Notes: generated by a model not told the origin, from the sequence alone. DNA of 64,000 nt from a virus (IMGVR_UViG_3300017917_003607:47692-111691); one strand, 5' to 3'; positions 1,002 to 50,138 are shown, numbered from the stretch's first letter. Made by a program: numbers and translations.

Positions 1002-4000
1002 TTAGATATTTTCAAAAGAAGCACCTGTTGGAGTAATTAAGAATTCAATATCTATAAATTCAAGTGCTTTAGTTGGTTTAAGGTAAATTTTACCTGTTAA
1101 AGTATTTCTGTCTAAGTCTTCAGGTGTATTTGTTACAACAACTCTAAAGTCAATCAAACCTCTATCTCTTCTTATTGAATCCAAAATTGGGTTAACAGAA
1201 TCCAAGAAGTCCTGTCTAACTTTATCGTCGTTTTGTTCAAACAACAACCTTACAGCCACAGCCGAAATCAATTTACGAGCTTGTAACAACAATCTTCTTA
1301 CGTTGATTCTATCAAGAGCTGATTGTGCAACTTGTGTTGTTTTATTACCCCAAATCAAAGTTCCCACATCAGAGAAAGTTGCAATTGGGTTAATTCTTCC
1401 TTGATAAAGTGTATCTCTATCATCTTGTGTAAGTTTTTTACGTGCTTTGATTGAACTTACGATACCTCTTGTGTAACCCGCAGATGCGAACCATGGGAAA
1501 GAAATATTATCAGTTAACGCTAAGTTTTTACAAACCTCAGCAGTTGGAGGTAAATAAATCTGTGTATTGTTTACTGTATCTCTTGTTAATACCCAAGGAT
1601 AATAAGTTGCGGTGTAATTTGAATCTATACCCGCAGTATCTAAGTTGTCTACCGCTTCTGTTGGGTAAATCAAATCAGTTGCTGGTGTTGTTGAGGTAGG
1701 TGCAAATAAATCATAATCAGGACATGTCATGATGTATAATGAATCCGCTCTTTGAGATTCAATCATATCAATAGCATCTGCAACTAAATTAGAGTTATTA
1801 ACAAAATCAATACCTGGAGTAACAAAAACGTTGATATTTGTAGCTTCAGGATTTGCAAATGTTTCTTGTCCTAAAAGATATGCGTAATAGTCTGTGTTTG
1901 CCCAATCAGTTGCGTTGTTGTTTATTACTATTCTTTTGAATGCTCCCCAACCTGTCGCGTCAGGAAACTGAGATGAAGGTGCCGCTCCTTTTTTATAGTT
2001 ACCACCACCTAAAACATAATCATCACCATTAGTTCTATATTTTCTGTAGATATCCCATCCGTCAAAACCACCATTTACAAATAGAGTAAATTTACGTGAT
2101 TGTAATCTGTAGTAAGGGTCTGTAGAACTTGTTGGGTCAGAGGTAAAAGACGCAGCTCCAACCTCAAACGCCGAAGTTCCTGAAGTACTAAATGACGATG
2201 AAATAGTTACAACTGTTGCCCCACTATCCATATGGAAACCTTTAGATTTGTAATCCCAAGGTGTTGAGGTTGTTGCCTCTGCAATATCACTAGGTGTTTG
2301 TTTACCCTTATAGTCAAAAAACTCAGAGTCATAACCTATTGTATCTGAAAGACCTAAGAAAGTTCTATTTATTTTATCACCCGAACTTCTTTGTACTGAA
2401 GAAAATGGTGGTTGGAAAGTAATTTCACCAGCGGTAAAATATTTAGTTTTGTATGTTGGGAAAGGAGTTAAAGCTCCATTATAATTTCTCATTGAGTATC
2501 CTTCAAAACCACAAGGTAGTGCGTCTACAGGTGCTTCAGGATTAATTTCCAACATTACAAACTTAGACCTCTGTTGATATTCGCCATCACTTGTTCCTAT
2601 TTTTACACCCACAAAACTGTTTGAATTTGGGTTCATAGAACAATTTGTAAATTTCTCCAAATATACAGGGTTAGCGTCAGTGTCGTTGAAAGCTCTAATA
2701 CCAACATCAAAAGTTCCGTTGTTAAATGATATGTTGAGTATTGATATTTTTATTTCTTGGTTTGCTGCGTTACCGTCAGATATTGAAATAAATTTAAATA
2801 ATTGATAAACTTTATTACCTCTCAATTCTGAAACCAAATAAGGTGTTTCAGGAGTTTGGTATTGTTCTAAGTACCAACCAATTGATGTAAGCGTTCCATT
2901 ATCGTCTTGTGCAGAAGGTAAAGAGGTCAAGTTAGAACTTATACCTCTAATATAACCTTTCTTATAACCGTAGTTTAATAAATTACTAAATTCTTCTTCA
3001 ACAAATAAAGGTACTTGTTCACTTGGTTTTGCAAAGTTTGAAAGACCTAAAACTCTAGAAATGTAATTACTATCTGTCGAGTCCATAGAAACTTTAAACT
3101 CAAATGAAGTTCCGTTATTTGAAACCCCTGATATGCCAAATGGTGAATAAGGACTAAAAGTCGCTGCTGAATATACGCTATTAAAATCTAAAGTAACATC
3201 ACTTGTTCCCGATACAACCCAAACAGGATTTACCGAAGATGTGTATGTAGAAACACCTCTTGAGCGAAGTGTTGCAACTACCACATTATTATACTCAGTA
3301 AATGCAGTACCGATTTGTGTGAAACCTGAAACAGAAACTGAACCTGAGAATTGTCCTGCGACACCATAAGTAGTTCCTGACAAAGTATTTACCCTTGAAA
3401 TAAACGAGTAACCTGAATAAGCGTTTCCTGTTGTAGGTTTAAATTGTGCGTAATACCAAGCGTCGTTATCTCTACTACCATAAGTGGTCAAACTATCTTT
3501 AACACTTGGTACATTATATACGTTAGTAATTCCTGTCCATCCCGCACCTGTTAGGGCATCATATCTTGCATCTGGAACCGTACCGAAAACATATGCTGAT
3601 GTACCACTTGTTGCAGGTGTTGCAAATACACCACTTAGTAAAGATTTTAATTTAGCCGAAATACTTGTTGAAGTACCATTATTTAAACTTAATACTCTAT
3701 TCAAATCAGAATTAAATATTGCGGAAGAAGTTGAGCCAAGCTCAATTGTTGAGGTTCCGCCAGTTGTTCCTGTAAATGTTACGATTACTTCAGTGAGTGA
3801 AGAATTCTGAGAAACAGAACCACCACTTACGTTTGCTATTGTTTTGATTGACCAAGAAGGTCCCGCATCATAACCCGAAAGTCCTAATACTCTTGTAACA
3901 AACAATTGATTAGATTGTTGTAAATAAGCCTTTGCAATATAGGCCGCTTCGTATTTAGGGATTTGTGTTTCCACGAATTTTTCAGGAGTTGTTCCACCAA

Positions 4001-4175
4001 ACACTGTTTGGAATTGGTCAAAATCTGAAATGAAAATAGGTTCAAATGCTGGTCCCTTTAAGGTTTCACCAACAATGCCCAAAGTTGTAACACCTACACT
4101 TTGTGCTACGAATGATAAATCACGTTCTGAAGTATAAACTCCAGGTGAAACGAATACTTTATTGGATGTTGCCAT
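1002..4175 (-). CDS. gp18: Contractile tail sheath protein (T4 gp18-like) with Ser/Thr/Gly-rich insertions
   Basis: N-terminal FVSPGVYTSERDLS and GETLKGPAFEP; C-terminal YYPWV, PWFASAG, RINPI, WGNKT, DRINVRRL, LFEQND, KPTKALEFI are sheath hallmarks. Confidence 0.95.
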   Translation of the reverse strand: MATSNKVFVSPGVYTSERDLSFVAQSVGVTTLGIVGETLKGPAFEPIFISDFDQFQTVFGGTTPEKFVETQIPKYEAAYIAKAYLQQSNQLFVTRVLGLSGYDAGPSWSIKTIANVSGGSVSQNSSLTEVIVTFTGTTGGTSTIELGSTSSAIFNSDLNRVLSLNNGTSTSISAKLKSLLSGVFATPATSGTSAYVFGTVPDARYDALTGAGWTGITNVYNVPSVKDSLTTYGSRDNDAWYYAQFKPTTGNAYSGYSFISRVNTLSGTTYGVAGQFSGSVSVSGFTQIGTAFTEYNNVVVATLRSRGVSTYTSSVNPVWVVSGTSDVTLDFNSVYSAATFSPYSPFGISGVSNNGTSFEFKVSMDSTDSNYISRVLGLSNFAKPSEQVPLFVEEEFSNLLNYGYKKGYIRGISSNLTSLPSAQDDNGTLTSIGWYLEQYQTPETPYLVSELRGNKVYQLFKFISISDGNAANQEIKISILNISFNNGTFDVGIRAFNDTDANPVYLEKFTNCSMNPNSNSFVGVKIGTSDGEYQQRSKFVMLEINPEAPVDALPCGFEGYSMRNYNGALTPFPTYKTKYFTAGEITFQPPFSSVQRSSGDKINRTFLGLSDTIGYDSEFFDYKGKQTPSDIAEATTSTPWDYKSKGFHMDSGATVVTISSSFSTSGTSAFEVGAASFTSDPTSSTDPYYRLQSRKFTLFVNGGFDGWDIYRKYRTNGDDYVLGGGNYKKGAAPSSQFPDATGWGAFKRIVINNNATDWANTDYYAYLLGQETFANPEATNINVFVTPGIDFVNNSNLVADAIDMIESQRADSLYIMTCPDYDLFAPTSTTPATDLIYPTEAVDNLDTAGIDSNYTATYYPWVLTRDTVNNTQIYLPPTAEVCKNLALTDNISFPWFASAGYTRGIVSSIKARKKLTQDDRDTLYQGRINPIATFSDVGTLIWGNKTTQVAQSALDRINVRRLLLQARKLISAVAVRLLFEQNDDKVRQDFLDSVNPILDSIRRDRGLIDFRVVVTNTPEDLDRNTLTGKIYLKPTKALEFIDIEFLITPTGASFENI

Positions 4176-4300
4176 TATTTTTAATTTTTCTTTTTACGGT
4201 TTTATTTTTATACATAAATATTGTTGATTTTTTCAAAAAACTTTGTAACGCATTTATATTTATAAAGTGGTGGGAATAAATTCTGCCTTTTTTCTACCAT

Positions 4301-6018: not shown

Positions 6019-6060
6019 TATTGATAAATACACTAAAATTGATTATTATTATAAGGATTA

Positions 6061-7830
6061 ATGTCAGATAATTCACCAATAGAATTAGTTTCACTTGTTG
6101 AACAAAAAGCTCTGAATGTTTTAGAGAACTATAACGGTGCAAATAACTATATACTGAAACTTAAAAATATATACGGACCTAATAAAAAAGGTATTCCAAC
6201 GAGAAGTCAATCTGATTATATTATAACCTATCAAAATACAGTTCCAAAAATAGCTCGTAAGTGGGTAGAATTAGATAGTTATTTTTCTGAAAAAATCGCA
6301 AACGAAAAATTATACACCGAACCCCCAAAACAAGTTTGGGTAGAAAAGTTATTAGTTGAAAAAGACAAATCATATCATGTGTGGGGTAAATTCCTCGAGA
6401 GTGAACAACTATCAGAATTTTGGATTCCAAAAGTTGCGATTATTAAAAACCCCGAACAATACTATAAAGAAATAGATTTTTCAAAGTATTCACATAGACC
6501 ATTATTATCACATCAAATAGAAGCGGTAAACAAACTTGTAAGAACAAAAAGATTTATATTAGCGGATGATATGGGATTGGGAAAAACTACATCAACTGTG
6601 GTTGCTGCGTTAGAAACCGAAGCCAAAAAAGTTTTGGTAATTTGTCCTGCATCGTTAAAGATAAATTGGCAAAGAGAAATACAAAACTATACAGATAGAC
6701 CAACTTTTATTTGTGATGGAAAAAAATATGAAGATACTGATTTTGTAATAATTAACTATGATATCATTAAAAATTTTCATGACCCCGAAAATGAAAAAGA
6801 ATCTTTAATATTAAAAAGTAAATTTGATTTAATAATAATTGATGAGGCACATTACATACAGAATAAATCAGCACAAAGAACAAAATTAATCAATAGTTTT
6901 GTTAAAGATGTTGATAGATTGTGGTTACTAACAGGTACACCAATGACCTCAAGACCCATGAATTATTATAATCTTTTAAATCTTGTTGAATCACCCGTGG
7001 CGGCAAATTGGATGGCTTACGTTAGAAGATATTGTAATGGATACCAATTCAAAGTCGGAAATAGAAAAATATGGAACGTCACGGGCGCATCAAATTTAGA
7101 AGAACTAAGAGACAGAACATCAAAACAAGTTTTACGTAGATTAAAAACTGAAGTGTTAGACTTACCTGATAAGATTATAACACCTGTATATTTGAGATTA
7201 AAATCAAAAGAATATGAAAATTTAATGGGTGAATATTATGATTGGTATGATAAAAATCCCGATGAAAGTACATCACTAACCGTCCAATTTACAAAACTTA
7301 CAAAAATAAGACAGGTAATCGCAAGTGAAAAAATAAACTCAACAATAGAATTAATTGAAAACATTTTAGAACAAGATAAAAAAGTAATAGTTTTTACAAA
7401 CTTTACAGAGACATTACACACAATACATTCACACTTTGGAAAAAAATCGGTTTATCTTGATGGTTCTTGTAGTCCAAAACAAAGACAGGACGCGGTAGAC
7501 AATTTTCAAAACAATGAAGAAATTAGAGTGTTTGTCGGAAACCTGAAAGCCGCGGGTGTTGGTATTACACTAACCGCGGCTGAGGCTGTTATTATGAATG
7601 ACTTATCATTTGTACCATCAGACCATTCACAAGCTGAAGACAGAAGTTATAGATACGGACAGAAATCAAATGTTTCTGTTTATTATCCAATATTTGAAAA
7701 TACAATCGAAGGAGTTATATACGATATACTAAATCATAAGAAAAATATTTTTGAGACTGTAATGGGTGATAATCAATCAAGAGCGGATGTTGTACAAGAA
7801 ATAATGAGTCGAATTAATGAACGAATGTAA
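6061..7830 (+). CDS. SNF2-family (SMARCAL1/HARP-like) helicase/ATPase
   Basis: LADDMGLGKT (I), ICPASL, IIDEAH (II), LTGTP (III), AAGVGITLT (V), QAEDRSYRYGQ (VI). Confidence 0.93.
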   Translation: MSDNSPIELVSLVEQKALNVLENYNGANNYILKLKNIYGPNKKGIPTRSQSDYIITYQNTVPKIARKWVELDSYFSEKIANEKLYTEPPKQVWVEKLLVEKDKSYHVWGKFLESEQLSEFWIPKVAIIKNPEQYYKEIDFSKYSHRPLLSHQIEAVNKLVRTKRFILADDMGLGKTTSTVVAALETEAKKVLVICPASLKINWQREIQNYTDRPTFICDGKKYEDTDFVIINYDIIKNFHDPENEKESLILKSKFDLIIIDEAHYIQNKSAQRTKLINSFVKDVDRLWLLTGTPMTSRPMNYYNLLNLVESPVAANWMAYVRRYCNGYQFKVGNRKIWNVTGASNLEELRDRTSKQVLRRLKTEVLDLPDKIITPVYLRLKSKEYENLMGEYYDWYDKNPDESTSLTVQFTKLTKIRQVIASEKINSTIELIENILEQDKKVIVFTNFTETLHTIHSHFGKKSVYLDGSCSPKQRQDAVDNFQNNEEIRVFVGNLKAAGVGITLTAAEAVIMNDLSFVPSDHSQAEDRSYRYGQKSNVSVYYPIFENTIEGVIYDILNHKKNIFETVMGDNQSRADVVQEIMSRINERM

Positions 7831-7871
7831 AGTTTTGTGGAACTCTATTTATTTATAATAAAAGTAGAGAC

Positions 7872-9434
7872 ATGAAATTGAAAAAGTTAGAATCCGAAAT
7901 TGAAGAACTACAAAGTATAATCGAAGGTACCGAAAACACACAAGAAATACTTCAAGAGCAACAAAAAGAAATTATTAACGAAATGAAGAAAATAGGTATT
8001 GAAAAATTACCTTACTCTTATTCTTCACTCCAACGATTCATTGACCCAAAAACAATGAATATCCACTATAACAAACATTACAAAGGATATGTGGATAAAC
8101 TAAACAAAGCATTAGAAAAACAAAAAGACAACGATTTAGACCTCGAAGAGATAGTTAAAGGTATTTCTCGTTTTAGTAAAACCGTTAGAAATAATGCTGG
8201 TGGGGCTTTTAACCACGCATTGTTTTGGAAAATGTTAACACCAAAAAAACAAAAGATTAAAGGTGAAATTTTAGAAAAAATCATTAAAGATTTTGGTTCA
8301 TACGAAGAATTTAAAAAACAGTTCATTGAAAAATCAAAATTAAATTTTGGTTCAGGTTGGTGTTGGTTGGTTATTACAAAAACAGGTAAATTAAAAATTG
8401 TAACCACGCCAAATCAAGACAATCCATTAATGAATGTTATTAAAGATGGCGGATACCCACTTTTGGGGTTAGACCTTTGGGAACACGCATATTATCTTAG
8501 ATATCAAAACAAAAAAGATGAATATATTGAAAAGTTTTTTTTAGTTGTTAATTGGGAATTTGTAAATTCTCTATATACGGCAAAAACCGAGAAGAAATTA
8601 AATGAAGAAAAATTAGTATCACAAATTTTAACAGAAGAACAAAGAAGTATGGGATGTAATTCATCACAAGTGAAACAAATTAACAGATTGTTTTCAACAA
8701 ACCCACAAGTAAAATACAAGTTTATGAACACCATTAACACAATATTAAAAAGTGTTTATGCCGAATATTGGAAAGAAAAAGACGAATATGAACCAGGTTC
8801 TATGTCAGGAATATATGATTTTGGTACCAAAGGACGTTCAGTTTTAAATAAACTAAACACAAACTACAGTTCATTTTGTATTTTAATGAACGACCTCAAT
8901 ATTTTTTTAATTTCAAAAGAAAAACAACCAATTATGTTCTCTATGAACAATAAAGAACAACAACTACAAGAGGTTGAAAGATTTTGTAACTATTTGGAGT
9001 TACTCAAAGATAGAATTTTTAATTTGTCTACATCGAAAACATTCCAAGAAATTTTCAAAAAATTAAAAGAGACTGACCAAAGAGGTGAAAAAAGAGAAGA
9101 CGATACGGTAATACAACTTAAAAAAATATTCAAAACCGATAAAGTTGAAAAAATTGGTGGTCTTGGGAATGAAGAAGATATGATTTCAGGTGTAGACGCA
9201 ATTATTGATGTTAATGGTGAAAGGAAAACCGCACAAATTAAACCATTTAGTTACACTAAAGACATCTCAGATAATGAAGTTATGGTATTTGGTGCTAGTG
9301 CACCTAAAAAATACAAAACCGATTTTATTGTTTTTAATAACCCAAGTAGAACTTTGGTTTTTAAAAATCAAGGAACAAAAATATTAGACGGAAATTACGT
9401 TTTTCCAAAAGAAAGCGAAATTAAATCTGTTTAA
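7872..9434 (+). CDS. sodA: Mn/Fe superoxide dismutase fused to a C-terminal domain with a PD-(D/E)XK-like nuclease motif
   Basis: LPYSY, HYNKH, NNAGGAFNHALFW, FGSGWCWL, NQDNPL, DLWEHAYY (all four metal ligands; GG and Q indicate Mn type). The extra ~280 aa contain EDMISGVDAII...TAQIKPF. Confidence 0.88.
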   Translation: MKLKKLESEIEELQSIIEGTENTQEILQEQQKEIINEMKKIGIEKLPYSYSSLQRFIDPKTMNIHYNKHYKGYVDKLNKALEKQKDNDLDLEEIVKGISRFSKTVRNNAGGAFNHALFWKMLTPKKQKIKGEILEKIIKDFGSYEEFKKQFIEKSKLNFGSGWCWLVITKTGKLKIVTTPNQDNPLMNVIKDGGYPLLGLDLWEHAYYLRYQNKKDEYIEKFFLVVNWEFVNSLYTAKTEKKLNEEKLVSQILTEEQRSMGCNSSQVKQINRLFSTNPQVKYKFMNTINTILKSVYAEYWKEKDEYEPGSMSGIYDFGTKGRSVLNKLNTNYSSFCILMNDLNIFLISKEKQPIMFSMNNKEQQLQEVERFCNYLELLKDRIFNLSTSKTFQEIFKKLKETDQRGEKREDDTVIQLKKIFKTDKVEKIGGLGNEEDMISGVDAIIDVNGERKTAQIKPFSYTKDISDNEVMVFGASAPKKYKTDFIVFNNPSRTLVFKNQGTKILDGNYVFPKESEIKSV

Positions 9435-9446
9435 TATTTATAATAA

Positions 9447-10574: not shown

Positions 10575-10909
10575 TGGCAGTTTTACGAAGTATACCATCA
10601 AAAAAAATAGTAAATGGTCACGAGATAACCACATCAGAAAATTTACTAATATCAGAATCATTTTACAAAACAAATGGTGAATATGCAATTGTAATAAAAG
10701 GAGTTGATTTCTGTGAATTAATTTTAAATAGTGATACTTCAGACCACGTTGTTGTAAAAGCTTTGACACATGTTTTAATTAAACCCGATAAAAACAAAAT
10801 TGATGAGGAATACGATGAAGTAGAAATCAACAAAGGTGCTTGTGTCGAGTTCTACTTCATGGGTGGTTGTTGGTATATCCTTTCCTCAGACGGACTCAAA
10901 TTGAGTTAA
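10574..10909 (+). CDS. Hypothetical protein (probably virion-associated)
   Basis: 111-aa ORF coupled (TAATG) to the neck gene; beta-rich, ends GGCWYILS. Confidence 0.7.
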   Translation: MAVLRSIPSKKIVNGHEITTSENLLISESFYKTNGEYAIVIKGVDFCELILNSDTSDHVVVKALTHVLIKPDKNKIDEEYDEVEINKGACVEFYFMGGCWYILSSDGLKLS

Positions 10910-13618
10910 CTTGTCTTCCCAACCTTCTTCAGCTAATTCGTATATGTAATTTGGTTCTAATCCTCTTTTATTCCAATATTTAACCTCATCAGGTGATATA
11001 ATCAAAACGTCTTCATCAAGTCTATCTTGGTCACCATCACCTAATGGATATCCATTCACTAATTCACATTGTTCTTTAGTGTAAAACTCTCTTTTAGTTG
11101 GGTCATCAATTAATAAAGTTTCTCTAACATCATCTTTAAAAACAACCATTAAAGGTTCTAATCTTTTGTTAAATGTAGCAACCGCTCTAGGTACATTATA
11201 CTCCCCAACCATATCGGGATTTTTTTCTAACTCATCATTTTCTAATCTGTAACAATTTATTTGAATTGTGTCACCTTTCTTTTGAACGTCACCATGAGAT
11301 GCTCTTGAGCCATTATTAACGTAATAAATCACATCCCCCAAATTAACATTAAGACCATCTCTAATTGCCAATTCCATATGTGCCATCCGAGACATCAGAT
11401 TTCCTGCTTTTGTCTTTTGAGTACATCTTGTTCTGTAATCGTCTAAACTAAGTTTTACCTTCGCTCTTGAAGCAATCAACTTAAGAGGGATTTTCATACT
11501 AACAATTTTTTCCAAATACTCATAGTAATACTCAACAAATTCTTGTCCCTTACCATTTAGTAAAAGTTTCAAACCTTTATCCAAAAATTCTTCAATATAT
11601 AGAGGTAGTTTCTTTGATTTAATTGTATTGCCAACAAGTTTGATTTTTCCTTTATCGGTCATAAGAGCGTAGTTTTTACGAGCCACGTTAATACATGATG
11701 GCCAAACACCATCGTTATCTAAAGCCATTTCACCTCTCATGAATATGTCATTATATTCGGCAATATCGGCAGCGGCTCCTGTATATTCTTTACCCTCTTT
11801 AACTTTCCAATTGTTTCCACGACCAATATACTTGCGAGTCTCAATATCAGAAGGTGCGGAGAAGTTTACACCGTCCGTGTCCATTACAAGTGGTTGATAA
11901 CCACGAGTCATGAAGAATTTAATCATTTGACGTAGGTACTGTCTACCTGTACAGGTAATTTGTTCTCCCATGTACATATCACCCCAATGAAACACCTGAG
12001 GAGCGGATAAAGCACCGAACATTGAGTTAATAAAAATCTTAATTGGTAACTGTTTGTTTGAATATGTTTCAGAAAGTTTTGGGTCTGTTTTTTCGTATTT
12101 TTCCGCCAATTCTTTATAGTGAATACGGGTGTCACGGAAATATTTTAACATTCCTTTCATTGCACCTGTTACATCACATTTTGGAAACACATCGTGAACC
12201 AATTGAATTGATGGATATAGTGAACTAAAGTCAAGTTTCAATACGTTAGTTGAGTAACCAACTTTTAGTAATCGTGACAAACCACCAACAAAGTCTGTCT
12301 TACCTTGTTTTTCAGGAATAGCCAAACCATGTTTGTAAGACCACGCAACCATCAACATTTTCCAAAGAGTTGCAGTACCCATAGTAGATACACGTTCATA
12401 AGTTGTTGGAATCATGGATGCAAGTAAGAAAGATGCTTGGTTAAATTCTTTATCAACCAACAGAGTTTCTTCCAAGTCATCATCAAGATATCTTTCAACT
12501 ATATTATCACCCGTGGTCTTAAGGTAAGTGTCACTTCTTCGAGAACAAATGTCATCAATTTTTGGGTCCAAACCAACCTTTTTGTAATTACCATTCTTAA
12601 TATTTAACCAATATTCTTCTTTCTTTTTATATAAAGAACCAATATCTGTGTGCTGAATATAAACACGGTCCTCAGCTTCGAGGTCCAAATATTGTGTAAT
12701 ATATTTCAAACCAGCGGCTTTAATGTTGGAGTTAATTGCTTGTGCTCTACGAACAGAGTGTAGGATATCAATTACATTATATCCCCAAATTGAAGTTTGT
12801 TGATAATCTTCTATTTCGTTAGCTAACTTAAGTATTTGCTTTGTTTGAGTTATACTCTTTTCAGGATTGAGTGAGTGACACACTTTTTTTATATCCAAAC
12901 CAAGAGCTTTACATCTTTCAAATATCCAATACCAGTCAAAGTTAAATGAGTTATATCCACCAATAATTGAAGGTCTAAGTTCATCAATTACTTTGAAAAA
13001 TTCAATGATACCTTCTCTTTCTTGGTCTTCTTCCATACATTCAATCACCCTGTGGTAACCCTTGTTTGTTTTTAATCCAATCATGAATATACGACCATCC
13101 TTTGGTTCAAGTGAGGTCGTTTCTAAGTCAAATACCAATCGAGTTACTTCATCGTAATCTGCAAAACCTTTGAATAATCGTTTTTCTTTCTGAACTAAGA
13201 ATTGTTCTACGGGCGGTAACATCAAGATTTTATCTTTCATTTTTTCACCCCAAGGGTCTAACCCTCCATCCCTAAAAAATTGAATTAGAGTCCTATATCC
13301 TTTGAGTGATTTAACCATAAATGTAAGACCTCTTTCAAGTCTCTCATCACCCATAGTTTCAAGTTTGTCAATTACAATACCATACTTGGTCATTGCTTCT
13401 TTTTGTAAACCTTTAGAACCTTGATAAAAGTTTAATCCTCGTAAATCACCAACCCATGCAAAAGCAACAAAAGTATCCCTTTGAATGACTTTTCCCTTAC
13501 CAGGAATTTCTTTAATTTTGTAAATGTAGTCTGATTGATAATCGAATTCTATCGATGTGATGAATTCTTCGGGGTCAGCACCCTCCAAAAACTGCTTAAT
13601 TTCTTCTTGTGATATCAT
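10886..13618 (-). CDS. polB: Family-B DNA polymerase with 3'-5' exonuclease
   Basis: VFDLET (ExoI), GYNSFNFDW (ExoII), LDFSSLYPSI (motif A), KIFINSMFG (motif B), MDTDG (motif C), KNYA; no intein. Confidence 0.96.
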   Translation of the reverse strand: MISQEEIKQFLEGADPEEFITSIEFDYQSDYIYKIKEIPGKGKVIQRDTFVAFAWVGDLRGLNFYQGSKGLQKEAMTKYGIVIDKLETMGDERLERGLTFMVKSLKGYRTLIQFFRDGGLDPWGEKMKDKILMLPPVEQFLVQKEKRLFKGFADYDEVTRLVFDLETTSLEPKDGRIFMIGLKTNKGYHRVIECMEEDQEREGIIEFFKVIDELRPSIIGGYNSFNFDWYWIFERCKALGLDIKKVCHSLNPEKSITQTKQILKLANEIEDYQQTSIWGYNVIDILHSVRRAQAINSNIKAAGLKYITQYLDLEAEDRVYIQHTDIGSLYKKKEEYWLNIKNGNYKKVGLDPKIDDICSRRSDTYLKTTGDNIVERYLDDDLEETLLVDKEFNQASFLLASMIPTTYERVSTMGTATLWKMLMVAWSYKHGLAIPEKQGKTDFVGGLSRLLKVGYSTNVLKLDFSSLYPSIQLVHDVFPKCDVTGAMKGMLKYFRDTRIHYKELAEKYEKTDPKLSETYSNKQLPIKIFINSMFGALSAPQVFHWGDMYMGEQITCTGRQYLRQMIKFFMTRGYQPLVMDTDGVNFSAPSDIETRKYIGRGNNWKVKEGKEYTGAAADIAEYNDIFMRGEMALDNDGVWPSCINVARKNYALMTDKGKIKLVGNTIKSKKLPLYIEEFLDKGLKLLLNGKGQEFVEYYYEYLEKIVSMKIPLKLIASRAKVKLSLDDYRTRCTQKTKAGNLMSRMAHMELAIRDGLNVNLGDVIYYVNNGSRASHGDVQKKGDTIQINCYRLENDELEKNPDMVGEYNVPRAVATFNKRLEPLMVVFKDDVRETLLIDDPTKREFYTKEQCELVNGYPLGDGDQDRLDEDVLIISPDEVKYWNKRGLEPNYIYELAEEGWEDKLTQFESV

Positions 13619-18667: not shown

Positions 18668-18718
18668 TCATAAATAAATACAAACATTATTGTATTTATA
18701 GTAAAAAGAAATTCATTG

Positions 18719-27029: not shown

Positions 27030-27032
27030 AAA

Positions 27033-27647: not shown

Positions 27648-27649
27648 TT

Positions 27650-28324: not shown

Positions 28325-28346
28325 AAAAATTTAATATAATAAGATT

Positions 28347-29159: not shown

Positions 29160-29164
29160 AAAAA

Positions 29165-30210: not shown

Positions 30211-30212
30211 TC

Positions 30213-33188: not shown

Positions 33189-33189
33189 A

Positions 33190-34185: not shown

Positions 34186-34198
34186 TAAAATTAAAATA

Positions 34199-35658: not shown

Positions 35659-35667
35659 TATTAAAAT

Positions 35668-37024: not shown

Positions 37025-37271
37025 AGAATATTTCGTTGATTTTCAAAAAATCGAGGATTTGATTACAATTAAGCAAGAATTAACAGGTGATACTGAACAA
37101 AACGTTAGTATAGTAAAATTTGAACTAATTAAAACTATGTTAGACGTGGTATTAACTGAATCAACAGAATTAGATGAAAAGATGTCCATGAAAGGTAGTA
37201 ACGATTTAACAATACCATTCAAGATTGCATTTAACACTTTAATCAGATATAACATATTACAATCTTTTTAA
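37005..37271 (+). CDS. Hypothetical protein
   Basis: 88-aa ORF in operon; FKIAFNTLIRYNIL C-terminus. Confidence 0.7.
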   Translation: MLKVLGEEYFVDFQKIEDLITIKQELTGDTEQNVSIVKFELIKTMLDVVLTESTELDEKMSMKGSNDLTIPFKIAFNTLIRYNILQSF

Positions 37272-37273
37272 TT

Positions 37274-38329: not shown

Positions 38330-38331
38330 TT

Positions 38332-39141
38332 ATGGAAAATAATGTTAACATATCAGTAATCCTCCCTATTTCTTCAGCGTATGGGAAAGATTTCGACGAA
38401 CTTTTTGATAAAGCAATTGAATCACTAAAAAAACAATCTGTGGGTATTGGTGAATTAGTTATAGTTCATACAGACGAAGAAAAACTTTGTAAAAAGTTAG
38501 AAACATACAATTTTGAAAACTTGAATGTCACCAAAATATTAAACACAACAACCGAATTTGATTATGCAAGTCAAATTAATCTTGGTGTAAAAAACGCTAA
38601 AAATGATTGGGTTAGTTTTTTTGAGTATGATGATGAATATTCATTTATTTGGTTTAAAAATGTTAAAGAATATATTGATTATCATCCCGAATGTGACGGA
38701 TTCTTACCAATCGTGGTGGATGTAGATGAAAAAGGTATATTTGCAGGATATACTAACGAAGCTACCTTTGCAGCATCTTTTAACTCAGAATTGGGAATTC
38801 TTACTAATGACCTTTTAAATACATACCAAAACTTTCAGTCAAGTGGTATGGTTATTAAGAAAAGTGTTATTGAAAATTTTGGCGGTTTTAAAAAATCTAT
38901 GAAACTTACTTTTGTGTATGAGTTTTTATTAAGAGTCACTTATAATTCGGTTAGAATAATGACTATTCCAAGATTAGGTTACAAACACATCAATATGAGA
39001 GAGTCTTCTATTTTTTGGAACTATAAAAACGGAAAAACTCCAATGACAGACAACGAAGTGAAATTTTGGATTGAGACCGCAAAAAAAGAATACTTTTTTA
39101 ACTCGGACAGAAATATAAAATATGAAACAAGTAACTCTTGA
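38332..39141 (+). CDS. GT2-like glycosyltransferase
   Basis: ISVILP, QINLGVK, VSFFEYDD, GGFK, YEFLLR. Confidence 0.8.
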   Translation: MENNVNISVILPISSAYGKDFDELFDKAIESLKKQSVGIGELVIVHTDEEKLCKKLETYNFENLNVTKILNTTTEFDYASQINLGVKNAKNDWVSFFEYDDEYSFIWFKNVKEYIDYHPECDGFLPIVVDVDEKGIFAGYTNEATFAASFNSELGILTNDLLNTYQNFQSSGMVIKKSVIENFGGFKKSMKLTFVYEFLLRVTYNSVRIMTIPRLGYKHINMRESSIFWNYKNGKTPMTDNEVKFWIETAKKEYFFNSDRNIKYETSNS

Positions 39142-39899
39142 TGATTTTAGAAAGTGTCTATTCGAGTGGAAAAACAGAAGACGCTCAATCTAAACGTGGT
39201 AAGAAACCAACAACAACCACAAATTATTTTGACGTAAGAGAGGAGAACGCAGTGGTGTTATTCCTCAATGCAGAGACAATTGAAGAAAGAAATAAAATAT
39301 ATAATGAGTACCTGAAAAAGCCAATCGAAAAGATGGTTTCTTCAATTATAAGAAGGTATAAATTATATAGAAAAGATATGTCTTTTGATGAAATTCTGAA
39401 CGACACTCATTCTTTTTTAATTACCAAGTCAGATAAATTTGTACCCGATAAGAATAAGAAAGCATATTCTTATTTTGGTACAATATGTAAAAACTATCTG
39501 ATGGGGCAAATAATAAAAGACCAAAAAGACATCAATAGAAAAGTTTCTTATGAGGACATTTCATCTAATTTGGAAAATAGACCTGACATGGTTTATTATA
39601 TAGAAAACGACGCGGTTGAGAGTGATAAAATAATTCAAGACTATATTGATATGTTAAAAGAATTCATATCCAACAGTAATCTAAATGAAAATGAGATAAA
39701 GTTGGGTGAAGCGTTATTACAACTATTTGAGACATACGATGAAATATTTGTTGCAAACGACAATAAAAAGTTTAATAAAAACTTAGTTTTGTTATCTCTA
39801 AGAGAGATGACAAATCTTTCAACGAAAGAAATCAGGATAAGTATGAAAAGATACAAAAAATTATACTTTGATTTCGTAAAAAAAATAGACCTTAGATAA
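39141..39899 (+). CDS. Late-transcription sigma factor (T4 gp55-like)
   Basis: NYF..., KFVPDKNKKAYSYFGTICKNYL region-2 motif typical of gp55-like phage sigmas; C-terminal helix-turn-helix-like LREMTNLSTKEI. Confidence 0.75.
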   Translation: MILESVYSSGKTEDAQSKRGKKPTTTTNYFDVREENAVVLFLNAETIEERNKIYNEYLKKPIEKMVSSIIRRYKLYRKDMSFDEILNDTHSFLITKSDKFVPDKNKKAYSYFGTICKNYLMGQIIKDQKDINRKVSYEDISSNLENRPDMVYYIENDAVESDKIIQDYIDMLKEFISNSNLNENEIKLGEALLQLFETYDEIFVANDNKKFNKNLVLLSLREMTNLSTKEIRISMKRYKKLYFDFVKKIDLR

Positions 39900-39911: not shown

Positions 39912-39924
39912 AATATTTATAGAT

Positions 39925-42512: not shown

Positions 42513-42513
42513 A

Positions 42514-42711
42514 ATGGATATAGAAAAAATTGAAAAAATAATATTGGAGCCAAGTTCTTATTCAAACCAAGAACTCATGCAATGTATGGATATATTATCA
42601 GAAGAACATGAAAAGGTTAAAGAAGATATTATCAAATATACCTATCAATTAGATAAATTAGAATTATCCTACAACAAATTACTAAACGAATATAAAGAGA
42701 GGACTAAATAA
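42514..42711 (+). CDS. Small coiled-coil hypothetical protein
   Basis: 65 aa, tightly coupled on both sides. Confidence 0.65.
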   Translation: MDIEKIEKIILEPSSYSNQELMQCMDILSEEHEKVKEDIIKYTYQLDKLELSYNKLLNEYKERTK

Positions 42712-44267
42712 TGATTGGTAACAATTATCAGGATTTGCCAAAAAAATACACACAGATATTCAATTTTGGTAAAGTTATAGACAACAAAGACCCTATGAAT
42801 TTAGGTCGTGTTAGATTAGAGGTGGTTCCATGGCAAAACCAAGATGTTATCAACGCATTTAAAAATCCAGTCACGGGTCAGGCTCTACAAGAAAAAGATT
42901 ATTGGACTGATATTGACCCATTGGTCTTTATGCCATTACTACCTCAATTCTTTAGTCAAGTTCCACAAGAGGGGGAGTTTGTTCATGTTGCGTTTTATAA
43001 CACGGATTTACAAGATAGAAACAGATACTACATACAAGGTATGTTCTCAAGTCCAAACGAACTTAAAGGAGAACCTTACGATTCTTCAGTTGCATTTACT
43101 TCTAAGGGTGAAAGAAACAAACTACCTAAAGATTTAAGAACCAAAGATGGAAAAATTATAAATTCAGAACAATCTGGTCTTTATCCTGAACTAAATGTTA
43201 CAGGTATACTTGGTAGATATAATTCGGACATGTTGTTACCACCAAATGCAGCAATGTTAAGAGTTAATAAACTGAATGACTCAAACTCTGGTTCCCCTAC
43301 TTTCAACAAGAAATTTTCTATGATTGGATTACAAAAATTCGACACAAGAAAAGTTGACAATGGTACTGATACTTTTATTGAAAGAGGTCAAATTGTTCAG
43401 AAAATAAAATACCTTATTGAATATGATGTTAACGGAGGTGTTGGTAGTTTGCTTGGTAAATTTTCCGCATCCGTAAGAATATATAAAATATCTGAGTACA
43501 AACCAGTTTATTCAACAAGTGCGGAAGATGGTTTTTATACATTTCCTGAAGAAAGTAAAATCGGTCCAATATACCAAAAAGATTATACTTTTGATAGTAA
43601 AGATGATATAATAAATGGTATTAATAACATTATTTCAAACTTCAATAGTGGTAACTTTACTTTGAATCCGTCGGGCTCAACAGTTAGTGATACTTTCCCT
43701 TTTGTTTTTCAACCAACAAAAAAAATGTATGATATTTGGTTACTAAACACGGAGTCCACAATTACCGAAATCACCAATGTGACTGAGTTTATACAAAAAA
43801 TATATCTAAACAAACAAGATGCAACAAGAGGTTATGGATATGTATCGGAACAAGATAGAATTGGTCCTGTTTTTTCTTCTAATAGATATAAAATACCTAA
43901 AGTTACTTACGAAGCGAACCCAATTACTTATGGTATTAATGTTGCAAATACTTTTTTTATATTGTCTCATGACAGTCAAATAGGTGTTAATAAAATTGAT
44001 TTTGATTTAATTAATTTTTCTGGTAATACAATACCGCAACAATTCATCGATGATTTTATTATGCCAAACACCAACTCAATGGTTAGAGGGGAACAATTGA
44101 TGAGTTTTTTAGAATTAATTGTGAGATTCTTAATCTCTCATGTACATCCATATCACGGTATGGCTCCTGACTCTCAGGGTTTAGATGGGACTTTGACCGA
44201 AACATTACTTACAAAATTATTTGATGCTGATAGTAAGATTTTAAATAAAAACTTACGCATTAACTAA
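42711..44267 (+). CDS. Baseplate hub/central spike (gp5/VgrG-like OB-fold plus HxH tip)
   Basis: GKVIDNKDPMNLGRVRL...PLLP...VPQEGEFV OB-fold; C-terminal VRGEQL...SHVHPYHG. Confidence 0.75.
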   Translation: MIGNNYQDLPKKYTQIFNFGKVIDNKDPMNLGRVRLEVVPWQNQDVINAFKNPVTGQALQEKDYWTDIDPLVFMPLLPQFFSQVPQEGEFVHVAFYNTDLQDRNRYYIQGMFSSPNELKGEPYDSSVAFTSKGERNKLPKDLRTKDGKIINSEQSGLYPELNVTGILGRYNSDMLLPPNAAMLRVNKLNDSNSGSPTFNKKFSMIGLQKFDTRKVDNGTDTFIERGQIVQKIKYLIEYDVNGGVGSLLGKFSASVRIYKISEYKPVYSTSAEDGFYTFPEESKIGPIYQKDYTFDSKDDIINGINNIISNFNSGNFTLNPSGSTVSDTFPFVFQPTKKMYDIWLLNTESTITEITNVTEFIQKIYLNKQDATRGYGYVSEQDRIGPVFSSNRYKIPKVTYEANPITYGINVANTFFILSHDSQIGVNKIDFDLINFSGNTIPQQFIDDFIMPNTNSMVRGEQLMSFLELIVRFLISHVHPYHGMAPDSQGLDGTLTETLLTKLFDADSKILNKNLRIN

Positions 44268-44279
44268 TATTTATAGTTA

Positions 44280-45773
44280 ATGTCTATACACAAATCATAT
44301 CTAAATAGAAATAATACAATTATTTATAATAGTTCTACAAACACAGGACAAAATCCTGTTACAGAACTTTTTTTTGGTAGGGTAGATAATACACTATCAA
44401 CGCCAGGATTTTCAAGATTCATATTCAATATAGATTTAACAGAACTTACAAACAAAATATCTTCAGGTGTAATATACACAGGAAGTCCAATGACACACGT
44501 ATTCAAAATGACCAATACAATTATGTATAATTATGAATTACTGAATACAACAACATCAGATGGTAGAAAAAGAGCAACAGGTTTTAATTTAAATTTACAT
44601 AGAATACCTAAATATAACCTTACAGGTTCTTCTCAAAATTGGGACGAAGGTGTTGGATATGATTATTACGATAATTCAAACATCAACTCTTCTAATGCAA
44701 GTTTAAGTTCACAAAACTATAGAGACAACGACAAATCTTACTCCAATAGACCATCTAATTGGACAAAAGCAACAACAATTAGTGGGTGGAGTGAATCAGG
44801 AATATATAACAACATAAACAGTGGTAGTTCTGTAAATTATTCAGCACTAACTTTGGTGGATACTCAATATTTTGAATTTGGAAATGAAAATATTGAGTTT
44901 GATATGACTAACGAAATAAATAGTATTTTAACAGGTGGGACTACAGGGGTTACTGGTTACATAATATCTTTTGACCCAGAACTAGAAAATATAACAGGAC
45001 TTACAGAAAATTATTCCGTTGGTTTTTTTACTCGCCACACACAAACTTTTTATGAACCATTTTTGGAAACATCATATGATGATTTAATTTTAGATAATAG
45101 AACAAGTTTTTTTGAAAAGAAAATAAATAAGTTATATCTATATTCATATATTGATGGGGTACCAACTAATTTAGATTTTAACCCTACAGTTACGATAGAA
45201 GACTCGAATGGTGATATACCTACAAACTGCACAGGATTAACTACAACATTGAGGACTGAGGGTATTTATGAGGTTTCAGTACCACCAATTACTGGTTATA
45301 CAACCCCATGTCAATTCAGTGATATTTGGAGTGGATGTACTTTGAATGGTATAAGTATTGGTAACATAACAAATGAATTTGTTTTAAGACCATACGGTGA
45401 GTATTATCAAATAGGGATTAATTCTAAAGACCCTCAGACATACGGATTTACTTTTTCAGGAATAAAACAAGATGAGAAAATTATTAATACAGACCTAAGG
45501 AAGGTTGTATTACAAATTAAACAAGCGTATACATCCAACGTAGTTTACCCCAATTTTAAAGCTTACTATAGAATCTTTGTTAAAGAAGGTAAAACAGAGG
45601 TTAACGTACAAGATTGGACAAGAATAAATCAAACATCAAATGAATATTATTTTATGTTTGACACTAAAGACAAAATACCAAATGAATATTTTGTCGATAT
45701 TAAAGTATTAACTTCAGGTGAGGTAGATATTTATAAAAGACAACTAAAATTTCAAATAGTTAATCAAAAATGA
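44280..45773 (+). CDS. Virion structural protein (Ser/Thr-rich, beta-sandwich domains)
   Basis: SRFIFNID, WDEGVG, FFTRHT, YEPFLE; TATTTAT box 5 nt upstream. Confidence 0.7.
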   Translation: MSIHKSYLNRNNTIIYNSSTNTGQNPVTELFFGRVDNTLSTPGFSRFIFNIDLTELTNKISSGVIYTGSPMTHVFKMTNTIMYNYELLNTTTSDGRKRATGFNLNLHRIPKYNLTGSSQNWDEGVGYDYYDNSNINSSNASLSSQNYRDNDKSYSNRPSNWTKATTISGWSESGIYNNINSGSSVNYSALTLVDTQYFEFGNENIEFDMTNEINSILTGGTTGVTGYIISFDPELENITGLTENYSVGFFTRHTQTFYEPFLETSYDDLILDNRTSFFEKKINKLYLYSYIDGVPTNLDFNPTVTIEDSNGDIPTNCTGLTTTLRTEGIYEVSVPPITGYTTPCQFSDIWSGCTLNGISIGNITNEFVLRPYGEYYQIGINSKDPQTYGFTFSGIKQDEKIINTDLRKVVLQIKQAYTSNVVYPNFKAYYRIFVKEGKTEVNVQDWTRINQTSNEYYFMFDTKDKIPNEYFVDIKVLTSGEVDIYKRQLKFQIVNQK

Positions 45774-47982: not shown

Positions 47983-48018
47983 TTAGAATTATTTTTTATA
48001 TATATAAATATTTGAAAA

Positions 48019-48255: not shown

Positions 48256-48268
48256 AGTCCCCTTTTTT
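48241..48268. terminator. Bidirectional rho-independent terminator (after the major capsid gene)
   Basis: AAAAAAGGGGACT-AA-AGTCCCCTTTTTT. Confidence 0.9.
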
Positions 48269-48287
48269 ATTATTGGATTATGTTAGA

Positions 48288-50138
48288 TTATCTCAATTCT
48301 CTCAAATCAAATGTTCTAACACCATCAACTGTGATTTTACCGTAGAAACGGTTGTTCACCATCTTCTTAGCGTATCTTGTCATGATACCTTTGATTGGTG
48401 TAAAGTTGAATGGGTTATACATTGTTGGAGTTAATTGTAGAGGAACATATGGTGCGTATACATAACCAGTGTCCAATAGAGAATTACCTTTGTGACCCAA
48501 CAACAATGTGTTTGGTGGGAAATAAGGGTCTCTATAAACTTGGTATCTACCTGCCAAAGTACCTACTCTCTCAATACCCATGTTGTATTGGTCCTGTTCA
48601 GGAGATGCGTTTGATACGTGGAAGTATTCCAAATCATCAAAAATAGCACTGATTTCAGAAGATACAACAATCCAGTTAGCTCCACCTCTTAAGGTAGATT
48701 TGTGGATTTGTGCTGAAATTTGGTTGATAGCAGTTATCAACGTTTGATTCCAGTCTTTTTGAGTATACTGTGTTAATGGATTAGATGAAGTACCTCTCTT
48801 CCAACCATTGTAGTCCCATCTCAAAGTCCAAGCCGCACCTTTTCTAAGGTCTCTCAAGATTTCTCTATCAATTTCAGCCGCAACTTGTTCAGACAATAAA
48901 GCTGTCAATTCAGCTTCAGCATCGATGTTATGGAACGCTGCAACGTCTTGAGCCAATTCAGGTGACCACTGAGCTCTTAATTTTCTTTCAGTTACTGAAA
49001 CAGTTACAGAATTCAAATCAAAAGAAACTTCACCGATTTGGTCTTCAAATTCCAACTCTTTGTAAATCTTGTAAGTACAAGTAAAGATGTTGTTAGTTGA
49101 TGCGATTGAGTTTGTTGTGATACCTGAGTATCCGTCTAAAGAACCAGAACCAACTGAACATGGAACTTGTGTATCAATTTCCAAATAAATGTTACCTTCT
49201 TGTGAACAAATGTTATCAAAAGTACCACCGTTACCGTCTGTTGGGAAAGTAGTTGTGTAAGGAGAACCATACTGAACAATACCCTGTCCGTATTTTTGAG
49301 TTACTACTCTAAACAACAATGGACCAGTACTCAATGAATTACCAGCGGTAGTTCCTGAGAAACCGTTACGTACTTGAGCAGCAACAGCACCAGCCGCAGT
49401 GTTTTGTTGTACAGTTAATGACGCCAAGAATTCTTCAGTATCCATTTCGTTACCGTTAGGTCCGATTAGTTTACCTTCACCTGCGGTGTTGAAACCTGAC
49501 ATAACTATCAATACTTTTCTGAATTCAGTATTTGCAGGATAACCTGAAGGTGTCAAAGTAGCTCCGTCCCATACAACAGTACAAGCTGTTACTGTTCTAG
49601 CAGAGAACTGACCTTTAGAATAGTCAAACAATCCTGGAGGGTCTAAAGTCGCCTCATTACCTTCATAAAATCTATCGTAAAGATTTTTTGTTGTACTATC
49701 ATAACCTGAATCTGGTGATGTAGGACCGTTAGGTGCTCCGTAAGGACCGTAGTGTTGTCCACCATTTGTTGGGTCAACACCACTGTTGTTACCAGTTGCG
49801 TAGTTTTGAATTTTAGGTACAAAGTAGAACAATTTACCGATAGGTAAGTTCATTGCTTGTACAGAAACGATGTCGTTAGCTAACAACTTAGAGAATACTC
49901 TTCTTACGATTGGGAATACAACCGTTTCGAAAGAACCGTCTGAAGATGTGCTAGCAGCTTCGTTTATTAAGTGTGATGCTTGGTTTTCATAAAGTTGAGC
50001 GATGTTTTCTTTAACATGACCTCTCAAACCTTCTAGGAACCCTAGCTTGTCCCATTTGTTAATAGTATCTTCTTTGATAACTTTAAGGTGCTTAAGACCG
50101 ATGTTACCAACAAGACCTGATTCTAATAATGCTCCCAT
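48288..50138 (-). CDS. gp23: Major capsid protein (T4 gp23-like) with a large central insertion
   Basis: PIVRR...ANDIVSVQAM..P.G..FY, RKLRAQWSPELAQD..AFH.IDAEAEL...L..Q...EIDREI, GYVYAPYVPL, F.P.KGIMTRY. Confidence 0.96.
   Translation of the reverse strand: MGALLESGLVGNIGLKHLKVIKEDTINKWDKLGFLEGLRGHVKENIAQLYENQASHLINEAASTSSDGSFETVVFPIVRRVFSKLLANDIVSVQAMNLPIGKLFYFVPKIQNYATGNNSGVDPTNGGQHYGPYGAPNGPTSPDSGYDSTTKNLYDRFYEGNEATLDPPGLFDYSKGQFSARTVTACTVVWDGATLTPSGYPANTEFRKVLIVMSGFNTAGEGKLIGPNGNEMDTEEFLASLTVQQNTAAGAVAAQVRNGFSGTTAGNSLSTGPLLFRVVTQKYGQGIVQYGSPYTTTFPTDGNGGTFDNICSQEGNIYLEIDTQVPCSVGSGSLDGYSGITTNSIASTNNIFTCTYKIYKELEFEDQIGEVSFDLNSVTVSVTERKLRAQWSPELAQDVAAFHNIDAEAELTALLSEQVAAEIDREILRDLRKGAAWTLRWDYNGWKRGTSSNPLTQYTQKDWNQTLITAINQISAQIHKSTLRGGANWIVVSSEISAIFDDLEYFHVSNASPEQDQYNMGIERVGTLAGRYQVYRDPYFPPNTLLLGHKGNSLLDTGYVYAPYVPLQLTPTMYNPFNFTPIKGIMTRYAKKMVNNRFYGKITVDGVRTFDLRELR

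Follow-up and report, generated by a model that had tools for sequence, protein, structure and literature searches.

A Ser/Thr-Gly-x-Ser/Thr motif in tail proteins of an uncultured jumbo phage lineage and its co-variation with one glycosyltransferase suggest a candidate virion glycosylation tag

The locus and a recurrent motif in its virion-type proteins

The present analysis concerns a 64,000-nucleotide stretch of viral DNA, referred to here as the window, which corresponds to bases 47692-111691 of the 111,691-bp contig IMGVR_UViG_3300017917_003607 and carries, besides structural and replication genes, an operon rich in glycosyltransferase (GT) genes at positions 21198-39141 (Table 1). Several virion-type proteins encoded in the window contain multiple copies of a four-residue motif, [ST]-G-x-[ST], and a preliminary description of the locus had proposed this motif as the acceptor signal for the transferases of the operon. 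The contig is about 36% complete according to CheckV, its close relatives are fragments of 107-214 kb and more distant ones with terminal repeats reach 339-373 kb, and hence it represents roughly a third of a jumbo-phage genome with a size of about 300 kb or larger. The phage is an uncultured myovirus, whose nearest deposited capsid proteins, 42-46% identical, belong to an uncultured huge phage, Microcystis phage Mel-JY01 and Flavobacterium phage immuto, with the capsid of Rhodothermus phage RM378 being a more distant match. Its host is probably a member of Bacteroidota, since a SprB-repeat protein (Pfam PF13573) encoded just upstream of the window fits such a host.

Motif counts were compared with those expected from protein composition, and significance for each protein was assessed with 5000 whole-protein, composition-preserving shuffles and, as a local control, with shuffles inside 10- and 20-residue blocks. 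Recounting reproduced the motif numbers given in the preliminary description. The tail sheath contains 13 sites as compared to 3.7 expected, the conserved 634-residue protein 15 (19 when Cys is admitted at position 4) as compared to 1.9, the Pro/Thr-rich protein 21 as compared to 9.5 and the 497-residue protein of the structural module 9 as compared to 1.4 (p<0.001 in each case), with no site in the family-B DNA polymerase (PolB), the terminase, the portal or the GDP-mannose 4,6-dehydratase Gmd and one in the helicase. Enrichment of these four proteins survives both whole-protein and block shuffles (under the latter, 21 sites observed and 5.8-6.2 expected in the Pro/Thr-rich protein), and therefore a local composition rich in Ser, Thr and Gly does not explain it. 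The major capsid protein and the 518-residue protein earlier called a spike do have the two sites each that had been reported, but neither is enriched (1.4 expected, p=0.41, and 0.7 expected, p=0.13, respectively).

When 11 structural proteins, a set chosen by count, were pooled with collagen-like runs masked, 123 sites were observed versus 36.6 expected (z 14), and the remaining 86 proteins of the contig gave 27 versus 28.0; the motif is restricted to virion-type proteins. A selection-free scan of about 2300-3200 three-class patterns per genome, using all proteins of at least 250 residues, ranked the motif 5th in this contig, behind Pro/Thr-linker patterns only, 1st in the close relative G001 and 4th in another, G005. 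Its ranks of 319th in T4, 411th in RM378 and 53rd in immuto correspond to absence of the signal in all three, and G.[ST]G was not among the top-ranked patterns. The linker patterns themselves ([ST]P[ST], P[ST]..P) are 3-7-fold enriched in this contig, with similar ones in G001 and G005, and are not among the top patterns of the more distant relatives G006 and G022. Upstream of the window the contig encodes further carriers, namely the SprB-repeat protein with 22 sites, a 374-residue protein with 9 and a Laminin_G_3 protein with 12, as well as a collagen-like fibre (genome 4782-6869; Pfam Collagen) whose 55 hits fall mostly in Gly-X-Y repeats. Such repeats as the source of the motif fit this fibre only; elsewhere the sites are isolated.

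The form of the motif was examined by comparing it with related patterns. Among the 11 structural proteins, the shifted registers [ST].G[ST], G[ST].[ST] and [ST]G..[ST] occur near or below 1x, and in the motif-rich proteins N-x-S/T stands at 0.99x, the classic turn form [ND]G.[ST] at 0.79x and the Bacteroidota sequon D[ST][AILVMT] at 26 sites versus 33.3 expected. Neither of the half-motifs [^ST]G.[ST] and [ST]G.[^ST] exceeds expectation, and the residues at the two hydroxyl positions are hence coupled; an enrichment of about twofold was seen for [ST]A.[ST] as well. The refined motif is hydrophobic-[S/T]-G-{not Pro}-T: sites with a hydrophobic residue at -1 number 69 versus 11.2 expected (6.2x), Thr to Ser at position 4 stands at 95:28, and Pro occupies x in 1 of 123 sites. 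The 704 sites of distant homologues follow the same flank rules more sharply, with Thr to Ser at 613:91, no Pro at x in any of the 704, and hardly any Arg or Lys at -1 and +5. Such flanks look like those of a sequon. Codons at the sites are mixed, in line with general Gly codon usage, which rules out a motif at the DNA level.

No BLAST similarity was found among the carriers, the sole hit being a duplication within the Pro/Thr-rich protein (residues 104-241 versus 522-667, 53-60% identical), and domains shared among carriers are thereby ruled out as the source of the motif. In the sheath, ten sites lie in an N-terminal insertion (residues 117-350), two at 651-665 and one at 1050; they are partly conserved in the orthologues of G001, G002 and G005, with toggling between Gly and Ala, and in T4, RM378 and Mel-JY01 the sheath contains 0-1 sites. 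Both sites of the capsid protein are inside its internal insertion. The 634-residue protein had been named LamG-like, a name for which no support was found, the protein having no Pfam or PHROG hit; its family comprises 1627 homologues, with 845 cluster representatives. Its residues 357-380 form a six-residue periodic TGxCxx block with four repeats (TGNCET-TGTCVN-TGQTYE-TGYT), whose Gly and Cys show no variation across an alignment of 41 homologues and in which the motif persists in 116-121 of 121. The same protein has about ten conserved Cys residues, unusual for a protein made in the cytoplasm. Close orthologues retain this block and TGYT at residue 152 exactly, with gain and loss of other sites, and across the 121 homologues six sites are invariant or nearly so. 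Where orthologues are without a site, Gly is retained in 15% and the flanking Ser/Thr in 56-63%, Gly being replaced by Ala, Glu, Lys, Ser, Asp or Leu, and such loss would be unexpected if backbone geometry required Gly. Distant representatives of the family are 6.6-fold enriched on average, but at any one site position of the 634-residue protein the motif is present in only 0-36% of them; motif density is thus kept while positions turn over. Because the carriers are dissimilar, positions turn over and sites are lost mostly through a change of Gly, the motif is not tied to one fold. An AlphaFold2 (AF2) model of the 634-residue protein, made with 41 homologues, is too poor for surface mapping (mean predicted local distance difference test score, pLDDT, of 54); segments of low confidence account for 51% of the chain and contain 13 of the 19 sites.

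Table 1. Features of the window discussed in the text, with positions counted from the first base of the window
Feature	Position	Strand	Length (residues)	Family matches and remarks
Tail sheath	1002-4175	-	1057	phrog_23 and Pfam sheath domains, residues 742-1055 only
Helicase	6061-7830			
Fe/Mn superoxide dismutase fusion	7872-9434			Pfam Sod_Fe_N and Sod_Fe_C at residues 43-233
Family-B DNA polymerase (PolB)	10886-13618			
Pro/Thr-rich virion-type protein	14127-16763	-	878	21 sites; internal duplication
Conserved virion-type protein	16763-18667	-	634	15 sites (19 with Cys)
GT4-family GT-B glycosyltransferase ('GT1-like')	21198-22412	+		phrog_7162, E 1e-48; weak Pfam Glyco_trans_1_4
Two-domain glycosyltransferase	24084-25724	+		Glyco_tranf_2_5 and GT4 N-terminal domain
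Variable sugar cassette	25708-35658	+		GT (phrog_14945), FkbM x3, GT2, GT11, WbuC cupin, KAS III-like, hexapeptide acyltransferase (31147-31698), PhyH, short DegT-like, Gmd, Glyco_trans_1_2
Conserved GT pair	37274-39141	+		AmGGT/Agt-like GT 37274-38329; GT2 (Pfam) 38332-39141
Protein earlier called a spike	42711-44267	+	518	No family hit
Structural-module protein	44280-45773	+	497	9 sites
Major capsid protein	48288-50138	-		phrog_138; insertion of about 240 residues
Portal	54400-56235			
Large terminase	56276-58051			

Two further features of the window concern gene starts and gene fusion. An octamer, TATTTATA on the coding strand, ends 4-23 nucleotides 5' of many start codons on both strands (for instance 9435-9442, 39914-39921, 44268-44275, 58056-58063 and 62928-62935), and TATAAATA precedes the sheath gene (4257-4264) and the gene of the 634-residue protein (18693-18700). 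Overall, there are 19 matches versus 11.5 expected, and with regard to promoter timing they do not separate the glycan operon from the structural genes. The superoxide dismutase gene encodes a complete enzyme joined to about 290 extra residues without a family match.

The glycan operon and the distribution of motif and transferase among relatives

Eight open reading frames (ORFs) of the operon (at 21198, 24084, 25708, 27650, 28347, 34798, 37274 and 38332) encode nine GT domains, two of them in the ORF at 24084, and together with Gmd, three FkbM methyltransferases, a KAS III-like enzyme, a hexapeptide acyltransferase, a PhyH dioxygenase, a short DegT-like ORF and a WbuC cupin they correspond well to the dedicated glycan operon with about nine GTs described earlier. 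Interspersed among the GT genes are an exonuclease, a dUTPase/dCTP-deaminase-like gene, an HAD phosphatase and PhoH. No ORF of 21198-39899 contains a hydrophobic 19-residue segment, and no operon protein has a Pfam or NCBIfam hit to a flippase, a polymerase or a polyprenol-phosphate priming transferase. Without membrane segments, the operon therefore lacks the flippase, polymerase, ligase and priming transferase that synthesis of a surface polysaccharide would require, and an O-antigen or capsule operon of the Wzx/Wzy type was rejected, as its multi-pass membrane proteins are not present. Virions assemble in the cytoplasm, and all enzymes of the operon should be soluble there.

The first of these genes encodes a transferase whose AF2 model (pLDDT 93) has two Rossmann-like domains and whose top Foldseek hits are GlgM, PglA, MshA and BshA (E 1e-13 to 1e-11), by which it is assigned to the GT4 family with a predicted GT-B fold; sequence and profile searches against the PDB gave nothing useful, and matches in the ESM Atlas were viral 'RfaG-like' clusters only. 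This gene lies 2.5 kb from that of the 634-residue protein, and in most relatives it is found within a few kb of the homologue. Its product is 68-92% identical in relatives whose PolB is 56-97% identical and is better conserved than PolB nearly everywhere. In G012, G020 and G035, the orthologue matches in two pieces (query about 2-184 and 170-403) some 1.1 kb apart, which lie in a single open frame of 771-805 residues, as would be expected if an extra segment, such as an intein or a mobile domain, had been inserted in frame.

The cassette downstream differs in content among the close relatives G001, G002, G003 and G005, all of which are motif-bearing and keep its flanks, namely the GT4 gene, the two-domain GT gene, PhoH and 36401-39899. 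As in O-antigen islands, the cassette is hypervariable. The two-domain GT is absent in the motif-less clade described below, and it is also missing or partial in incomplete records of some motif-bearing relatives. The DegT/LegC-type ORF 32589-33188 has 199 residues that match two separate parts of a model of about 360 positions and is probably a truncated or degenerate copy.

For a comparison over greater distances, 81 loci of more distant kin were taken from IMG/VR, followed by whole-record searches. At five loci, the homologue of the 634-residue protein has zero motifs, its neighbours are not enriched and the GT4 gene is not in the flank. The motif-less or motif-poor records, with 0-1 motif in the homologue, are 65-100% complete (G006, G008, G009, G010 and G026), and two of them, G006 (339 kb) and G026 (373 kb, 1 motif), are complete genomes with terminal repeats. 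Whole-record searches found the GT4 transferase in none of these five and in 21 motif-bearing records (G011-G023, G025, G028 and G030-G035), non-adjacent in five of the latter, and all four close relatives of the contig (G001, G002, G003 and G005) have it as well. Three motif-bearing small fragments in which it was not found are only 14-32% complete and thus uninformative, one being near-identical to the GT-bearing G028. A sixth motif-less row, L147, stands apart on a long branch; its record is 11% complete and has no close relative on a longer contig. The query P0238 found no match among viral contigs.

Genome-wide, G006 has 98 sites versus 95.4 expected, the motif ranks 638th of 3184 patterns in its proteins of at least 250 residues, and no other Ser/Thr motif substitutes for it; its top patterns include an NG-hydrophobic turn pattern. 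In the complete, GT-bearing G016 (353 kb), the motif is the top structural-module pattern, with 164 sites versus 69.1 expected. Site numbers in this phage, G016 and G006 are 15, 15 and 0 for the orthologues of the 634-residue protein, 9, 4 and 0 for those of the 497-residue protein (full-length alignment) and 13, 8 and 4 for the sheaths. In G022, of all GT-bearing relatives the nearest to the motif-less clade, the motif ranks third at a GC content of 40.5%, as compared to 39.1% in G006, and hence base composition is not the cause and an artefact of GC content is ruled out. The complete, motif-less G006 has 55 of the 58 G022 proteins for which G016 encodes a homologue; the three missing genes are those of the GT4 transferase, a hexapeptide acyltransferase and a CCA-adding enzyme. 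The last is a tRNA nucleotidyltransferase with a PolyA_pol head domain, located at G022 183161-184450 (L224:12161-13450), and has a homologue in G016.

Homologues of the transferase also occur outside this set of relatives. One that is 27% identical is found in coliphage ESCO5, and phages of this group, the Phapecoctaviruses, carry four adjacent annotated glycosyltransferases (NC_047776.2 107401-110545, L255). LR756501, a 735-kb uncultured phage, has a full-length homologue that is 35% identical and a 3.9-fold enrichment of the motif, counted without masking collagen-like repeats; in its 697 sites, Pro occupies x in 75, Thr to Ser is 392:305 and only 28% are hydrophobic at -1, and the enrichment is confounded by collagen-like G-x-[ST] repeats. 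Giant proteins of 2816-3487 residues in this genome (LR756501.1 bases 1-640000, L264-L295) have 41-58 hits each versus 2-3 expected. Presence of GT2-family enzymes alone was rejected as a predictor of the motif, since immuto and Mel-JY01 each have two.

A candidate glycosylation tag weighed against other explanations

The explanation that is tentatively put forward here is that the motif serves as a tag on exposed tail proteins, which would be read by the cytoplasmic GT4 transferase of the phage and decorated by enzymes of the variable cassette. It draws on the motif statistics, the restriction to virion-type proteins, the turnover of sites, the lack of membrane proteins in the operon and the joint absence of motif and transferase in one subclade. 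In this lineage of jumbo phages, the short tag would mark those tail, sheath-insertion and fibre proteins that face outward and would be recognized in the host cytoplasm by the soluble GT4 enzyme, a candidate initiating transferase, which we infer to act on protein and to place the first sugar on Ser or Thr of the tag. Soluble cassette enzymes, such as Gmd, GT11, GT2, the FkbM methyltransferases and the acyltransferase, would then extend or decorate this sugar with a set that differs from phage to phage, and the tail would thereby receive a glycan coat that varies between lineages, the identity of the glycan being likewise inferred. In the preliminary description, the motif had been regarded as the acceptor signal for all of the approximately nine GTs. 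The link stands for the GT4 transferase and does not extend to all nine, given that the pair at 37274-39141 is kept in a motif-less genome and the cassette varies. Co-variation of the motif with the GT set in relatives, proposed earlier as a check, was found for this one enzyme and within a single clade only. Likewise, a coat on sheath, baseplate, fibres and capsid was too broad a claim: the sheath is enriched, and the capsid and the so-called spike are not.

Several observations weigh against such a tag. Its support consists of sequence statistics throughout. The five motif-less records form one clade (99% support), which is nested among motif-bearing relatives; they therefore represent a single loss event and one independent contrast, for which a sign test with one pair is powerless. 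Orthologues in this clade are also lower in Ser, Thr and Gly content. The complete motif-less genome G006 keeps a GT2 and an AmGGT-like GT that correspond to the pair at 37274-39141, and therefore one transferase, rather than GTs generally, tracks the motif; this pair is probably not tied to the motif, and at least one function of the operon is independent of it. Fold matches of the GT4 transferase are generic GT4 enzymes that act on small-molecule, sugar or lipid-linked acceptors, with no specific likeness to known protein O-transferases in Foldseek searches. ESCO5, with its homologue, shows no motif enrichment, and the capsid, which is the largest exposed surface of the virion, is not enriched either. 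Finally, the confident parts of the AF2 model of the 634-residue protein place the motif at strand-loop junctions (for instance at residues 152, 232, 357 and 375), a placement that would suit both a turn and an exposed acceptor.

This last point leads to the main rival, considered unlikely, in which the motif is a structural device of the beta-rich tail proteins of this lineage, a strand-turn-strand or beta-arch element whose turn is capped by Ser/Thr, and the co-loss of the transferase is a coincidence. A hydrophobic residue before the motif, Thr after it and the exclusion of Pro would suit beta strands, the modelled sites are at strand ends or starts, six sites including those of the TGxCxx block are near-invariant among the 121 homologues, [ST]A.[ST] shares in the enrichment to some extent, and the phylogenetic contrast is only one. 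However, the canonical turn form [ND]G.[ST] is not enriched, and the motif-less genome has an ordinary NG-hydrophobic turn pattern among its top ranks. Gly is the least conserved position at lost sites, where Glu, Lys, Ala, Leu or Ser takes its place. The same fold exists with zero motifs, homologues hold density and not positions, and the carriers are without mutual BLAST similarity. The preliminary description had itself raised the possibility of turn residues conserved in relatives that lack GT operons; distant homologues were found to carry the motif at other positions, and motif-free homologues exist. Moreover, of the three genes that the motif-less genome lacks, two encode sugar enzymes.

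According to a second and rather improbable alternative, the motif is unrelated to the operon, which would remodel the surface polysaccharide of the host, as in a superinfection block, or glycosylate phage DNA; both roles are listed for phage GTs (PMC12619734). The cassette is indeed O-antigen-like and varies between close relatives, but the operon has no flippase, polymerase, ligase, priming transferase or any other membrane protein. As to DNA, the dUTPase/dCTP-deaminase-like gene, the exonuclease and the HAD phosphatase are located among the GT genes, and a thymidylate-synthase-family gene (PF00303) is present in the relative G004; such a gene was not found in G000, G001, G003 and G005, all of which are fragments (36-63% complete), and Pfam reported neither the alpha- nor the beta-glucosyltransferase family of T4 for operon proteins. 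Such roles would also leave both the motif and its co-variation with the transferase unexplained. The weakest alternative, and a highly doubtful one, is that the tag has another reader, such as a kinase, an acyl- or methyltransferase, an assembly chaperone or a host-surface ligand, with the GT4 enzyme acting on a non-protein acceptor: sharp specificity and restriction to virion proteins would fit any reader, the hexapeptide acyltransferase was lost together with the motif and structural neighbours of the transferase use small-molecule, sugar or lipid-linked acceptors, but no kinase or other candidate reader is found among the three missing genes, the third of which encodes the CCA-adding enzyme, and the transferase is the best conserved of the three and mostly lies within a few kb of a motif-rich gene.

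Relation to known glycosylation systems and significance

Self-glycosylation by viruses is already established for chloroviruses and some mycobacteriophages. In the general O-glycosylation of Bacteroidota, the sequon D-[S/T]-[A/I/L/V/M/T] is modified in the periplasm from a lipid-linked donor on many unrelated proteins. The tag proposed here would be similar in being a short Ser/Thr sequon on many unrelated proteins, and the probable host belongs to the same phylum; it differs in that the Bacteroidota sequon is not enriched here and that the operon is without a membrane protein.

Among viral systems, the major capsid protein Vp54 of the chlorovirus PBCV-1 is modified by the virus' own glycosylation machinery, which is thought to be cytoplasmic and includes multi-domain GTs and sugar methyltransferases (PMC9614988). 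Its glycans are attached at atypical short sequons with Thr at +3 (NTGT, NTET and NTAT), and changes in viral GT genes give rise to glycan variants (PMC9614988). At the level of genes, a comparable virus-encoded soluble kit is present here, with Gmd, a two-domain GT and three FkbM methyltransferases. In contrast to PBCV-1, a eukaryotic virus with N-linked glycans on Asn of its major capsid protein, the present motif contains no Asn, N-x-S/T is not enriched, the capsid is unenriched and the carriers are phage tail proteins. By analogy, the candidate system would thus be most like chlorovirus capsid glycosylation, yet without its defining N-linkage and capsid target.

In mycobacteriophages, virion proteins are modified by GTs that the phage itself encodes, capsid and tail-tube subunits being glycosylated at their C-termini (Freeman et al. 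2023, as summarized in PMC12619734), and that summary names no short internal sequon. A GT gene near virion genes is shared with the present locus, at which the sites are however internal, in the sheath insertion and in fibre-type proteins, the capsid is unenriched, the tail tube is encoded outside the window and the host is probably a member of Bacteroidota rather than of Actinobacteria. Moraphages are characterized in PMC12619734 as uncultured aquatic jumbo phages of myovirus type, with genomes of 200-307 kb, predicted Bacteroidota hosts and four core GT orthogroups, for which virion glycosylation is named as one possible role. By that description, and with no membership implied, the phage studied here is similar to them in being an uncultured jumbo myovirus-like phage with several GTs; the passages on moraphage GTs mention no motif or sequon. 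In Actinobacillus, surface proteins are modified in the cytoplasm by an N-glycosyltransferase (NGT) and the alpha-1,6-glucosyltransferase Agt/AmGGT (PMC12159676). Action of soluble cytoplasmic GTs on a short sequon, as proposed here, would be common to both, and ORF 37274-38329 is homologous to AmGGT (PDB 8xsg, E 1.5e-7). However, Actinobacillus uses N-linkage at N-x-S/T with priming by a GT41 enzyme, a family not found here, and the AmGGT-like gene does not track the motif.

Neither a short acceptor motif for bacteriophage virion glycosylation nor an [ST]-G-x-[ST] tag was found described in the literature searched. What is new is that the GT4 gene and the motif are absent together in the same relatives, and together with the statistics of the motif this suggests, without proving it, that the tag is where the phage glycosylates its own tail. 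If true, this would be, as far as the literature searched shows, the first defined sequon for virion glycosylation in a bacteriophage, and the tag with its enzyme would offer a compact pair for glycoengineering of proteins in the cytoplasm. More broadly, a cytoplasmic O-glycosylation system, with the sequon hydrophobic-[S/T]-G-{P}-T, a GT4 reader and a variable cassette, could possibly be common to a widespread group of uncultured jumbo phages, which has hundreds of members in metagenomes from lakes and elsewhere. Glycosylated virion proteins would then be predictable from sequence in hundreds of uncultured jumbo phages, and the occurrence of a conserved transferase beside a fast-changing sugar cassette would be explained. 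Physiologically, a variable coat on the tail could affect host recognition, protection from enzymes of hosts or grazers, and stickiness of the virions.

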